Assembly (NCBI GenBank): GCA_963750165.1
Contig: CAVVPN010000011.1
Span: forward strand, 320,001 to 384,000
Direction: 5' to 3'
From: an uncultured Gemmataceae bacterium
GTDB lineage: Bacteria > Planctomycetota > Planctomycetia > Gemmatales > Gemmataceae
Length of the DNA stretch: 64,000 nucleotides
Part shown: positions 810-5,405 of the stretch, piece by piece
Layout: every line of letters starts with the position of its first letter
Numbering within the stretch: the stretch's first letter is position 1
Made by a program: the position numbers and the translations under genes
The notes under the pieces: model-generated
Told to the model about the DNA's origin: nothing
What the model saw: only the letters and a program-made list of their open reading frames with translations
Databases searched by the model: none

Positions 810-1700
810 ATGGGATTGCTTCCCGATCACGAAATTGAGCGGATCATCAAGATCGAACCGCTGGCCGAAGGGCTCTCCCGGCCCGGGACCATTTCGTATG
901 GCCTGACCAGTTACGGCTACGACGTGCGCGTTGGCCGGCGCTTCAAGGTCTTCGAGCCGTACCACGAAATCAAGAGCATGAAGGACGTGGCCGCCGCCTG
1001 GCTGGCGGGCCTCATCGACGGCGAAGGGCATCTGCGCGACGACCCGGGGGAGGGAGTCAAACTGACGGTCACCAATACCGATCGCTCCATGCTGGAACTG
1101 GCGCACAATCTCACCGGGGTTGGACAAATCTACACGACGAATCACGCCAACCCCAACCACAAGACGCGCCACGACTGGGTAGTTTCGCGCAGCCGGCACG
1201 TCCAGGAAATCCTGGTGCGCGTCCTCCCCTACATGGTCGGCAAGCGCGAGCGGGCCTTGCAGCTGATCGGCAAGACGTTCAAGCGGGAAGGCGTCGCCAT
1301 GCCGATCGTGGACCCCAAGCACTTCCCCACGGACGCCTTCGTGGACATTGAGGCCGATTTTTGCATCATTCCGCCGAACAGCTTCGCCCTGGCTGAAACC
1401 GTGGAGACGTTCGAGATTCCAAGGGATGTGCTCGCGATCTGTTTGGGGAAAAGCACGATCGCGAGATGCGGGATCATCGTGAATGTGACGCCCCTGGAGC
1501 CGGAATGGCGCGGCAAGATCACGATTGAAATCTCCAACACAACGCCCTTGCCAGCAAAGATTTATGCCAATGAAGGTATCGCGCAAATCCTCTTCCTGCG
1601 CGCCGACGCCGTGTGCCGCGTCAGTTACGCGGACAAGCGCGGCAAATACCAGGACCAAAAAGGCCTGATGCTGCCCTTCGTCAAAACAGACGAACAGTAG
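810..1700 (+). CDS. dcd: dCTP deaminase with an in-frame LAGLIDADG endonuclease domain insertion
   Basis: [78 protein letters not shown]. 296 aa because of an insert of about 110 aa. Confidence 0.95.
954..1304 (+). mobile_element. Single-motif LAGLIDADG homing endonuclease domain inserted in frame in dcd, with no intein splicing domain
   Basis: [10 protein letters not shown] at 999-1028, followed by LTVTNTD, GVGQIY, DWVVS and [11 protein letters not shown], which are typical of the LAGLIDADG fold. Confidence 0.85.
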
Positions 1701-1729
1701 TTGACACCTGTTTACGATCTTGATACAAT
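1701..1729 (+). promoter_or_regulatory. Sigma-70-type promoter for nrdJ
   Basis: TTGACA (1701-1706), 17 bp spacer, TACAAT (1724-1729), immediately after the dcd stop. Confidence 0.75.
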
Positions 1730-1781
1730 TACTCCCCCCAATCACTTCCGGGGAGTGTTCCGAGCTATTACGAGACGTACC

Positions 1782-4700
1782 ATGCAGATTACCCGTCGTT
1801 ACACCGTTGCCGGCCAGGATCCGTTCGCATCCTTCACGTTCGTGCCACGGACGTCGCGCATCGCCAATCCCGACGGATCGGTGGTGTTTGAGATGAAGGG
1901 GCTGCTGGCGCCGGAGGGCTGGTCGCAGGTGGCCGTGGACGTGCTCGCCCAGAAGTACTTCCGTCGAGCGGGGGTGCCGGCGCAGACCGAGCCCGTGACG
2001 GAGGCGGGTGTACCGGAGTGGTTGCAGCGGCGGCGGCCGGCGGCTGGGGCGGCTCTCGACCACGAGACGGATGCGCGGCAGGTGTTTCGGCGGCTGGCGG
2101 GCTGCTGGACGTACTGGGGCTGGAAGGGCGGCTACTTTTCCAGCGTGGCGGACGCGCGCGCCTTCTTCGATGAGTCGTGCCACATGCTGGCGGCGCAGCT
2201 GGCGGCGCCAAACAGTCCGCAGTGGTTCAACACCGGTCTGCACTGGGCCTACGGCATCGAAGGACCGCCGCAGGGCCATTACTACGTCGAGCCGGCCACG
2301 GGACAGATGACGCAGGCCACATCGGCGTATGAACATGTGACTCCCCACGCATGCTTCATCCAGCAGGTGCGCGACGACCTCGTCAACGAGGGCGGCATCA
2401 TGGACCTGTGGGTCCGTGAGGCGCGCATTTTTAAATACGGCAGTGGTACGGGATCAAATTTCTCCGCGCTCCGCGGTGAAGGCGAACCGCTCTCGGGCGG
2501 CGGTAAGTCGAGTGGCCTCATGAGCTTCCTGAAAATTGGAGACCGGGCGGCAGGGGCTATAAAATCGGGGGGGACCACGCGCAGGGCTGCAAAAATGACT
2601 ATTCTGGATCTTGATCATCCAGATATTGAGAAGTTCATCCTCTGGAAGGTGGTCGAGGAGCAGAAAGTCGCTTCGTTGGTGACGGGTTCGCGGTTGCTGA
2701 ATCGCCACTTGAACGCCGTCATGAAGGCAGCCCACCAGTGGCCGCAGGAGAGCGAGCGCTTCGACCGCGCCCGAAACAAGAACCTGCGCAAAGCCATCCA
2801 ACAGGCCCAGGAAGTGCTGGTGCCGGCCAATTACATCGAGCGCGTCTTACAACTCGCCCGTCAAGGCTTCACGGGGCTGGAGTTCGCGGAGTTCGCGGAG
2901 TACGACACCGACTGGAACTCGGAGGCGTACTTTACCGTCTCGGGCCAGAACAGCAACAACTCCGTGCGCGTGGACAACGCCTTCATGGACGCGGTCGCCA
3001 ACGACGGGCCGTGGCACCTCTACTGGCGCACCGAGAAGGAGCGGGCGAAGGCTCAGGGCCGGCCGCCGAAGCCGCGCCAGACGATGAAGGCGCGCGACCT
3101 GTGGGAGCAGATCGCCTACGCGGCGTGGGCATGCGCCGACCCGGGCGTGCAGTTCGACACCACCGTCAACGAGTGGCACACCTGCTCGGTGGACGGACGG
3201 ATTAACGCCAGCAATCCCTGCAGCGAGTACATGTTCCTCGATAATACAGCATGCAATCTCGCAAGTCTAAACCTTATCAGGTTTTACGACACGAAGACCG
3301 TCCGCTTCGACATCGACTCATTCCGGCACGCGACCCGGCTGTGGACGCTGATCCTGGAGATCTCCGTCTACATGGCCCAGTTCCCCAGCAAGGAGGTGGC
3401 GCAGAAGTCCTACGACTTCCGCACGCTCGGCCTGGGGTACGCCAACATGGGCTCGCTGCTCATGGTGCAGGGCCTGCCCTACGACTCCGAGGCTGGCCGC
3501 GCCCAGTGCGGCGCCATCTCGGCGCTGATGCACGCCGTCGCCTACGCCACGTCCGCCGAGATCGCCGCCGAGGTCGGGCCGTTCGTGCGCTTCGCTGTCA
3601 ACCGCGAGCCGATGCTGCGCGTCGTCCGCAACCACCGCCTGGCCGCCTACAACGTCCCGCGCGAGCAGTACGAGGGCCTGACCATCCCGCCGGTCGGCAT
3701 CCACCCGCAGCACTGCCCGGCGTATCTGCTGGAGGCCGCCCGCCGCGAGAGCGACCGCATGGTCGAACTCGGCGAACGGCACGGCTTCCGCAACGCCCAG
3801 GTCACCTGCATCGCGCCGACGGGCACGATTTCTCTCATCATGGACTGCGACACCACCGGCGTTGAGCCGGACTTCGCCCTGGTCAAGTTCAAGAAGTTGG
3901 CCGGCGGCGGCTACTTCAAGATCATCAACCAGAGCGTGCCGCCGGCGCTGGAGCGGCTCGGCTACACCCCGCAGCAAATCGACGACATTGTCCGCTACTG
4001 TCGCGGCGCCGCCACGCTGCAGGGCTGCCCGCACGTCCACCGCGCCAGCCTCAAGGCAAAGGGCTTCACTGACGAGGTGCTCGACCGCATCGAGTCGCAG
4101 TTGCCCGGCGCCTTCGAGATGTCGTTCGTGTTCAACCGCTGGACCGTCGGCGACGACGTGTTGCGCGATCAGTTGAAGATCAGCAAGGAGCGCTTCGAGG
4201 CGCCCGGCTTCGACCTGTTGCACGCGCTCGGCTACACCACCGAGCAGATCGCGGAGGCCAACGGCTACGTCTGCGGCACCATGACCATTGAGGGGGCGCC
4301 GCACCTCAGGCCGGAGCACTACCCCGTCTTCGACTGTGCCAACAAGTGCGGCAAGACCGGCCAGCGCTTCCTGTCCGCGGAGGCGCACATCCGCATGATG
4401 GCCGCGGCGCAGCCGTTCGTCTCGGGCGCGATCTCGAAAACCATCAATATGCCCTACGAGGCCACCATTGAGGACGTGAAGCAGGCGTACCTGCTCAGCT
4501 GGCAGCTGATGCTCAAGGCCAACGCCCTGTACCGCGACGGCTCCAAGCTTAGCCAACCGCTCAACACCATCGCCGACGCCCCGGCCGCGGAAGCCATCGA
4601 GGCCGAGCCGGAAAAGGAAGCGCACGCCAACCCGGCCGAGCCGGTGCGCATCGCGGAGAAGATCGTCCACCGCTACATCCGCCGCCGTCGTCGGCTGCCG

Positions 4701-5405
4701 GACCGCCGCGCCGGCTACACGCAGAAAGCGCGCATCGGCAACCACAAGATTTACCTGCGCACCGGCGAGTACGAGGACGGCACCCTCGGTGAAATCTTCG
4801 TGGACATGCACAAGGAAGGGGCGGCGTTCCGAAGCATGACCAATTGTTTCGCCATTGCCATCTCGCTGGGCCTGCAGCACGGCGTACCGCTCGACGAGTT
4901 CGTGGACGCCTTCCTGTTCACGCGCTTCGAGCCGAACGGCATCGTGCAGGGCAACCCGTACATCAAGATGACGACCTCGATCATCGACTACATCTTCCGC
5001 GAACTGGCCATCACCTACCTGGGCCGGCACGACCTCGCGCACGTGCGGCCGGACGACCTGCGCGGCGACGCCCTGCACCGCCACGAGGACGAGCCGGAGT
5101 TTGAATCTGAAGAGGTGGTCGAGGAGCGCGTGCTGGAGCCCAGGCCGATTTCCAAGGCGTTCGCCACGCCGCGCTCCGAGCACCTGCACCCGCTGCCGGA
5201 GAGCGCCGTCAACGGCCACCCCCCCGCCGCCGCGTCCGTTCCCGCCGCCGCCGCCGCGCCGGCCACCCGGGAGAGCAAGGTGCGCCTGGCCCGCCTCAAG
5301 GGGTATGAGGGCGACCCTTGTCCCGAGTGTGGCCAGCTGACGCTGGTGCGCAGCGGTTCGTGCTGCAAGTGCGACAGCTGCGGCGCCACCTCTGGGTGCA
5401 GCTGA
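1782..5405 (+). CDS. nrdJ: Class II (adenosylcobalamin-dependent) ribonucleotide reductase with C-terminal TSCPD domain and Zn ribbon
   Basis: [78 protein letters not shown]...CDSCG. Confidence 0.97.

Follow-up and report, generated by a model that had tools for sequence, protein, structure and literature searches.

The DNA analyzed here (the window) is a stretch of 64,000 nucleotides from an uncultured bacterium of the family Gemmataceae (GenBank assembly GCA_963750165.1, contig CAVVPN010000011.1, positions 320,001 to 384,000 of the forward strand), whose genome comprises 9.6 Mb in 12 contigs, with 66% GC. Near the beginning of the window lies nrdJ, the gene for a class II (B12-dependent) ribonucleotide reductase. 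The open reading frame (ORF) extends from 1701 to 5405 on the forward strand, and we set the true start at the ATG in position 1782 because the alignment with the relatives begins there; the gene thus occupies 1782..5405 and encodes 1207 amino acids. The product matches the Pfam families PF02867 (Ribonuc_red_lgC, E=2.4e-124) and PF08471 (Ribonuc_red_2_N, E=3.2e-36), contains a TSCPD domain (PF12637, E=7.9e-11), and includes the NPCSE and ACNL motifs. Directly upstream, on the same strand, is dcd, the gene for dCTP deaminase (810..1700; Pfam DCD and LAGLIDADG_3). A preliminary description of this DNA had noted that nrdJ, a gene with predominantly G/C-ending codons, contains short islands of A/T-ending codons, and had interpreted these as marks of intein and homing endonuclease sites. 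This proposal holds: the islands coincide with sites at which NrdJ proteins of relatives carry inteins.

The GC content at third codon positions (GC3) of nrdJ is 0.869 (1234 codons). The gene is intein-free, as claimed previously: Pfam detects no intein or endonuclease family in the protein, a genome scan with PF14890 yields no match in nrdJ, and residues 1-1207 of NrdJ are colinear with intein-less relatives. The codon counts given earlier for the three main islands are exact, with 8 of 11 codons ending in A or T at 2427-2459, 19 of 32 at 2532-2627, and 10 of 15 at 3240-3284. The two smaller patches in that description also contain A/T-ending codons, but they are weaker and were placed slightly out of frame; in frame, YEHVTPHAC corresponds to 2328-2354 (5/9 A/T-ending) and TGTISLI to 3819-3839 (2/7). 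The nrdJ islands exceed chance and depart from the majority codons of the clade at most positions. Across 23 GC-rich relatives, A/T-ending codons are scarcer in conserved than in variable NrdJ columns (rho -0.30), so that the islands, located in conserved regions, oppose the usual trend.

The insertion sites were mapped with the help of much longer NrdJ homologs. The search returned 203 proteins of at least 2114 residues; the 120 listed are the basis of all site counts, and all 120 carry intein and endonuclease Pfam families. Split BLAST alignments of these homologs gave 279 junctions, which fall into 11 sites once calls shifted by a few residues through refinement are merged. On the forward strand of the window, junctions were located for PHA|CF (in longer form PHA|CFIQ; 2351|2352, 38 of the 120 homologs), GSG|TGS (2447|2448, 7), AIK|SGG (2564|2565, 9), GGT|TRR (2576|2577, 8), NP|CSE (3218|3219, about 43), NTA|CNL (3251|3252, 35), PTG|TIS (3824|3825, about 88 junction calls in the 120, the most often occupied site), and the rare MTN|CFA (4844|4845, 1); the remaining sites are AWA|CAD (2), NPC|SE (6), and ISK|TIN (about 34). 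The DNA of relatives confirms inteins at PHA|CF (L033, L036, L196, L203 and others), NP|CSE, PTG|TIS, GSG|TGS (L041, L046, L209, L253), and GGT|TRR (L208, L210, L253).

All these sites are empty in the present gene, and island after island falls on one of them. Island B (2427..2459, 8/11) is centred on GSG|TGS, where 6 of the 10 codons within five codons of the junction are A/T-ending (P=6e-5; the same interval applies to the other counts out of 10). Island C1 (2532..2564, 7/11), in which almost all codons depart from the clade majority codon, ends at AIK|SGG (4/10, P=0.007), and island C2 (2586..2627, 12/14) begins 3 codons downstream of GGT|TRR; the amino acid motif of C2, with its T-I, was found in no other species representative. 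Island D (3240..3284, 10/15) spans NTA|CNL (7/10, P=3e-6), with NP|CSE located 21 nt upstream. The preliminary description had assigned island D to NP|CxE; this assignment has to be corrected because NP|CSE itself, with 1/10, is not recoded. A small island (4830..4856; CGA .. AAT|TGT .. ATT) lies on the rare site MTN|CFA (4/10, P=0.007). The weak island A' (2328..2354, YEHVTPHAC, 5/9) ends at PHA|CFIQ, where the count of 2/10 is not significant, and two A/T-ending codons, ATT TCT (3828..3833), are found just past PTG|TIS (2/10, P=0.21, not significant). Thus, islands B, C1, C2 and D, and the patch at 4842, are all on, or at most 3 codons from, junctions mapped from the 120 homologs and the DNA of relatives.

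The overlap with insertion sites, which had been put forward as the test of the proposal, is far above chance. Within five codons of the 11 sites, 31 of the 95 codons (33%) end in A or T, compared with 10% elsewhere in the gene; this count was reached in 0 of 20,000 label permutations and in 0.08% of circular shifts, which preserve the clustering of the codons. Because intein sites are conserved motifs, we also controlled for conservation, using 115 positions of equal or higher conservation located at least 15 codons from any site. These average 0.95 A/T-ending codons per 10, compared with 3.0 at the sites (Mann-Whitney p 7e-5; 5e-4 with 21 non-overlapping controls), and only one control window is strong, which coincides with the far end of island C2. 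Furthermore, a metagenomic NrdJ that is 79% identical to the present one (P0003) carries inteins precisely at GSG|TGS, GGT|TRR and NTA|CNL, which correspond to three island sites here, the two with the strongest signal among them. A causal link of some kind between the islands and intein homing sites is therefore strongly supported, and we hold it with high confidence.

The pattern extends to relatives. In the closest one (G012/L002; 81% amino acid identity, GC3 0.92), 29% of the codons near the sites are A/T-ending, compared with 3% in conserved controls. The recoded sites partly differ between the two genomes; in L002, 9 of 10 codons centred on PHA|CF end in A or T, at the site where the present genome shows only a weak island. 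The two genes share 14 A/T-ending positions, against 9.4 expected, and their third-position identity at identical residues is 0.54 near the sites compared with 0.74 far from them, indicating that silent change is concentrated at the sites in both sister lineages. Altogether, A/T-ending codons are more frequent around the sites than in controls in 15 of 22 relatives (Wilcoxon p 0.015, for genomes that are kin and not independent). In another relative, L035 (G004:C3:96000-103000), nrdJ is distributed over several ORFs, with breaks near 222-234 (GSG|TGS) and 480, and with stop codons further on; this may be a fractured or decaying multi-intein gene.

Beyond the clade, the signal disappears. Among 48 GC-rich NrdJ genes of other phyla, drawn from 80 loci fetched among at least 120 scan matches, there is no enrichment (0.097 A/T-ending near the sites and 0.119 elsewhere; higher near the sites in 11 of 48) and no island on a site. 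The island pattern is thus lineage-specific, which makes a general translational or structural reason unlikely. Such a reason would be offered by functions unrelated to inteins, for example, slowing of translation at rare codons for folding or cofactor loading, internal promoters, or other nucleic acid signals. The islands do sit on catalytic motifs, and weak sigma-70-like matches (9/12) are present inside C1 (2537-2565, forward) and D (3269-3241, reverse), which are probably a by-product of local A/T-richness; islands on Walker and other motifs of dnaX, ftsH, clpB, phoH and spoVR, considered below, would fit as well. However, equally conserved nrdJ motifs without intein sites are not recoded, conserved columns are normally poorer in A/T-ending codons, in the 23 GC-rich relatives the signal amounts to no more than weak bumps, and the set of recoded sites in the sister genome is partly different. 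Together with the absence of the pattern from the 48 genes of other phyla, this renders an intein-unrelated function highly improbable.

Even less credible is an artefact of assembly or polishing, in which foreign reads would have been written into conserved motifs. The source organism itself was found in no public sequencing run, and four such runs that were compared contain only fragments of relatives, 82-95% alike, which have G/C at the island positions. Nevertheless, similar islands are present at the same class of sites in the independently assembled G012, G009, G013 and G018, and the reading frame and clade-specific residues are intact, for example, the D-N of island D, as in the sister genome. 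Moreover, the A/T- and G/C-ending versions would share no long exact words that could lead to mis-mapping of reads. We regard an artefact as exceedingly improbable.

Other genes of the same genome (G000) show the same association. In dnaB, an island (PRLSDLRESG|SIE, 10/13 A/T-ending) lies on RESG|SIEQ (6/10 near the site), which accounts for 65 junction calls in 120 longer DnaB homologs; GK|TS, with 57 calls, is not recoded here. In dnaE, the only two islands are on HGV|MVYQ (n=17; 5/10) and GFNK|SHS (n=25; 4/10), and three rarer dnaE intein sites lack recoding. We also performed the reverse test, searching first 41 and later 251 relatives for the intein splicing family, fetching 58 loci, and mapping each intein to the unsplit ortholog in this genome. 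This procedure added six sites, with gene names taken from Pfam; most of the last 40 loci fetched did not map to an unsplit ortholog here and were left out. The added sites are rtcB DIN|CGV (5/10), the epimerase/dehydratase site RIFN|TYG (4/10), ugd GGS|CFP (3/10), dcd LGK|STI (CLGK|STI; 3/10), which is occupied in G013 and empty here, and two sites without excess, in an SNF2 helicase (GLGK|TPQ, 1/10) and gyrB (VIL|TDAD, 0/10). For the first 20 sites mapped, which belong to 6 genes and precede the epimerase, SNF2 and gyrB sites, the pooled count of A/T-ending codons is 60 of 200, compared with a mean of 26.4 (sd 6.2) for random positions, a total reached in 0 of 20,000 simulations; individually, 10 of the 20 sites have P <=0.053.

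A genome-wide scan was also run under strict rules, with at least 8/11 A/T-ending codons and GC3 of at least 0.8 in both 25-codon flanks, over 5590 crudely called ORFs. It detected 26 islands, including island D and the dnaB island; islands B and C miss the flank rule solely because they adjoin each other. Looser scans were dominated by wrong-frame ORFs and over-extended 5' ends, and all counts come from the strict scan or from homology-anchored tests. In the preliminary description, equally strong islands in genes that do not host inteins were held to argue against a link with homing. To some extent, such islands exist, namely, in dnaX (Walker B, 11/14; G000 C4:504583-506370), ftsH (Walker B, 10/14; G000 C4:483851-485968), clpB (7/9; G000 C3:3477047-3479704), phoH (11/19; G000 C3:364703-365674), spoVR (11/14; G000 C11:2167322-2168872), dxs (6/7; G000 C3:2632634-2634625), and asnB (10/15; G000 C1:13467-15353); a further island lies on the SAM motif of a methyltransferase (G000 C1:277700-282931). 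The names of ftsH, clpB, phoH, spoVR, dxs and asnB rest on Pfam matches. No dnaX split by an intein was found in 41 genomes, a search that did not directly address ftsH, clpB, phoH, spoVR, dxs or asnB. A preprint on a dnaX intein (10.64898/2026.09.14.751524) does not state the insertion site in its accessible part, so that the dnaX island stays unexplained. These islands may be targets of homing elements that have not been sampled, or may have another cause. Overall, intein sites predict an excess of A/T-ending codons, and some islands match no known intein site.

How homing could have produced the islands is best approached through alleles in which the sites are occupied. Across 31 distinct occupied nrdJ junctions, scored over 8+8 extein codons, the A/T-ending excess of the flanks rises with the difference between extein and intein GC3 (rho 0.48, p 0.007). 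Next to inteins with GC3 of 0.57-0.73, 2-8 of the 16 flanking codons are A/T-ending (5-8 in 10 of 12 cases), compared with 0-1 of 16 in 7 of 8 cases for inteins with GC3 of at least 0.9, the eighth case being L200 with 4/16. This relationship is the expectation of co-conversion of donor flanks together with a lower-GC intein, followed by joint amelioration.

Some island codons are also shared with the flanks of inteins in relatives. The occupied GSG|TGS allele of L253 (G445) reads TTT AAA tac ggg agc GGT | acc GGA tcc AAT, and island B has TTT, AAA, GGT, GGA and AAT in common with it; among the other relatives, GGA occurs in 0/20 and GGT in 2/20. The empty dnaB site starts with AGT ATA, as does the occupied allele of G016 (intein GC3 0.63), whereas the other alleles have TCN ATC. 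At GGT|TRR, the occupied allele of L210 (G647) is laid out like C2, with G/C-ending codons at the junction and then GTT, CTT, GAT and GAT at +8 to +13. The layout of island D likewise recurs in occupied NP|CSE alleles (G496, G523, G472), which have a G/C-ending junction and A/T-ending codons 7-13 codons on; in the young-intein NP|CSE alleles L197, L202 and L213, the D-D-T-A codons at the island D position are A/T-ending.

The interpretation that we favor, and to which we give about even credence, is that the nrdJ islands are relics of co-conversion. Homing inteins from lower-GC alleles would have entered these sites, bringing along 30-60 nt of donor extein DNA; the inteins would later have been lost precisely, leaving the co-converted flanks in place. 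We can envisage a route of loss in which an intein-free strand of a relative is integrated, mismatch repair restores the resident flanks, and the kilobase loop formed by the intein escapes repair, in line with the general properties of mismatch repair. As a possible side effect, the recoded sites would be cut less readily by endonucleases whose specificity matches the GC-rich clade consensus. The past presence of inteins in this lineage, their precise loss and the lower GC content of the donors are all postulated from comparative sequence data.

The main rival of the co-conversion relics is selected synonymous escape, in which recoding, whether stepwise or by conversion of patches, lowers the cutting or invasion by endonucleases tuned to the GC-rich consensus. 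The recoded patches would then be alleles of essential genes that are immune to the endonucleases and that selection maintains and renews, in an arms race between the bacterium and inteins that is fought at silent sites. We consider this alternative possible, albeit unlikely. Escape accounts well for the fact that about 27 of the 33 codons of island C differ from the clade majority codon, C-to-G changes included, and for the retention of 29-33% A/T-ending codons near the sites in both sisters despite 81% amino acid identity, along with faster third-position turnover. The islands are also 30-50 nt long, which is about the size of an endonuclease footprint. Intein endonucleases tolerate single synonymous changes, as stated in the accessible text of PMC3024317, so that many changes would be needed for immunity. 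The same requirement also works against escape, given that many substitutions would be needed, each of small benefit. In addition, the most invaded sites (PTG|TIS, NP|CSE, dnaB GK|TS) are not recoded here, the island B haplotype carries an intein in L253, and the AGT ATA flank of dnaB carries one in G016. Such sequences thus do not preclude invasion and may stem from it.

Several observations weigh against co-conversion relics. First, among multi-fold codons that are A/T-ending both here and in an occupied flank, the same base is found in 4 and a different base in 9; the corresponding comparison for L002 gives 8 same and 8 different. Hence, the islands and the occupied flanks show no overall identity by descent. 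Second, the A/T-richness of the islands (8/11, 12/14) equals or surpasses that of every occupied flank seen (maximum 8/16); such richness is odd for old relics and is readily accommodated by escape. Third, the lower near-site third-position identity of the sisters indicates ongoing turnover. Fourth, almost all codons of island C are off the clade majority, including the G-ending GGG GGG, which also fits escape. Fifth, 10 of the 20 pooled sites are without excess, among them those occupied most often (PTG|TIS, NP|CSE, PHA|CF, dnaB GK|TS), and the SNF2 and gyrB sites behave likewise. Sixth, precise loss of inteins would have to be assumed at about ten sites.

Finally, no donor could be identified. 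The preliminary description had suggested that a BLASTN search might reveal a foreign source, and none was found. A blastn comparison of islands B+C and D with 50,697 phage records produced only matches of ~70-76% to phage nrdJ, and hence no phage donor. A degenerate pattern of the C2 amino acid motif had 0 matches in 185,579 species representatives, and searches of metagenome contigs with exact 24-mers from islands D and C2 gave 0 matches. Among the 80 NrdJ loci from other phyla, the best third-position match is 12/14, in a very A/T-rich genome, and is compatible with chance. The best island identity among 40 relatives is 73-79%, and when 250 genomes of the family were searched with the NTA|CNL intein of P0003, no close homolog was retrieved, just ~30%-identical inteins of other sites.

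The preliminary description had named both escape and co-conversion as possible origins of the islands. The present data lean toward co-conversion relics, for which the chances seem to us about balanced, and make silent-site escape doubtful, without settling the choice between the two.

Another mechanism would derive the islands from the cutting itself. Repeated cleavage by homing endonucleases followed by error-prone repair, with a higher mutation rate near the cut, under purifying selection and with the universal GC-to-AT mutation bias, could generate A/T-ending codons around the sites. The position of the islands, which are centred on or adjoin cleavage and insertion sites, and the raised synonymous turnover there are compatible with this mechanism, as is the elevated exon diversity at the boundaries of mobile introns described in accessible portions of PMC5378118. 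Point mutation, however, would not be expected to produce serine family switches (TCN to AGT) or codon sets in common with occupied alleles. About 40% of the changes in island C at multi-fold sites are C to G, and the codon tables, viewed by eye, display no strand-mirrored A-vs-T skew around the junctions. Mutagenesis by break repair is therefore a very unlikely source of the islands.

The dcd gene, which adjoins nrdJ in relatives too, contains an in-frame insert of ~105 amino acids (about 954-1265) that matches LAGLIDADG_3 and has host-like GC3 and no recognisable splicing blocks; it could represent what is left of a degenerate intein, or an endonuclease inserted in frame. The earlier suggestion that the islands are tied to this LAGLIDADG sequence did not find support, given that one endonuclease could not explain ten sites in five genes; the insert is lineage-specific, being absent in all 15 alignable dcd loci of relatives. 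Elsewhere in the genome, there are three resident inteins of near-host GC3, with host proteins named from the translation: one in a UvrD/PcrA-like helicase (G000 C1:~355881-356105, reverse strand), one with LAGLIDADG in a PrkA-like kinase (G000 C11:~2171895-2173058, reverse strand), and one in a radical-SAM fusion protein (G000 C11:~2128048-2128197, forward strand). The C-extein of the UvrD/PcrA-like helicase starts with 6 A/T-ending codons out of 15.

Separately, an in-frame A/T-ending insert of the form SEVRE..KSE...LTSD.CPL.S was observed in two unrelated genes, C11:465339-466256, which we take to be hisF-like by motif, and C4:1103656-1106385. The DNA of this insert is palindromic-looking (tcagaagtcag / tctgacttctgac) and resembles a small in-frame repeat element.

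Full-text searches, supplements excluded, retrieved no earlier account of islands of deviant codon composition at intein sites that stand empty. The closest described system is the co-conversion tract of the cox1 group I intron in angiosperm mitochondria. As described in the accessible part of PMC3192709, this intron leaves exonic co-conversion tracts and, in a rare case of putative loss, the tract is fully retained and serves as a footprint of the intron; the likeness to nrdJ consists in short tracts of clustered synonymous differences, mostly at third positions, beside the insertion site of a homing element. The differences are that the element in question here is an intein, which, unlike an intron, cannot be removed via an RNA copy, that the tracts are two-sided, 30-60 nt long, and distributed over many sites in several genes of a bacterial chromosome, and that the signal is a contrast in codon composition, with A/T-ending codons in a gene with GC3 of 0.87.

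Three other systems offer partial parallels. In haloarchaeal MCM, inteins carry one to a few flanking extein codons with them, and differences between empty and occupied alleles affect invasion, the invasion-resistant allele having proline at +1 (accessible text of PMC10643990). Unlike in nrdJ, this resistance is non-synonymous and blocks splicing, and the same text does not describe synonymous runs at empty sites. Fungal mobile mitochondrial introns show raised exon polymorphism at their boundaries within species, so that the diversity of the host gene is locally shaped by an endonuclease-assisted element as well; in the part of that report accessible to us, the gradient surrounds introns that are present, and no compositional islands at empty bacterial sites are mentioned (PMC5378118). 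As for free-standing enzymes, such as SegG and mobE of phage T4, the resemblance to our case would be the cleavage of a conserved gene that leaves a short patch of donor DNA with no insertion at the cut. These enzymes mediate intronless homing and marker exclusion, and their genes are linked to the patch in the donor, unlike the situation here, in which no such gene was identified; the only nearby LAGLIDADG domain is that of dcd, and nothing points to a link between it and the islands.

The persistence of inteins is generally attributed to a cycle in which they invade a site, decay, are lost and invade again. To our knowledge, the loss step has hardly any direct support in bacteria, since a vacated site can usually not be told from one that never held an intein. 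Should the islands be relics of co-conversion, the compositional contrast in GC-rich genomes would provide a record of former intein occupancy that can be read from sequence alone, and precise intein loss would be frequent, having occurred at ~10 sites within a single genome, in five or six of its essential genes. Should they be escape alleles instead, they would give a first indication that hosts combat inteins at silent sites. With immune alleles kept by selection, past and present homing pressure could be mapped from sequence, and dnaX, ftsH, phoH and spoVR would perhaps be among the targets. Under either reading, the pattern could help to locate homing sites, and perhaps also the targets of endonucleases not yet described, in genomes from which the elements themselves have gone.

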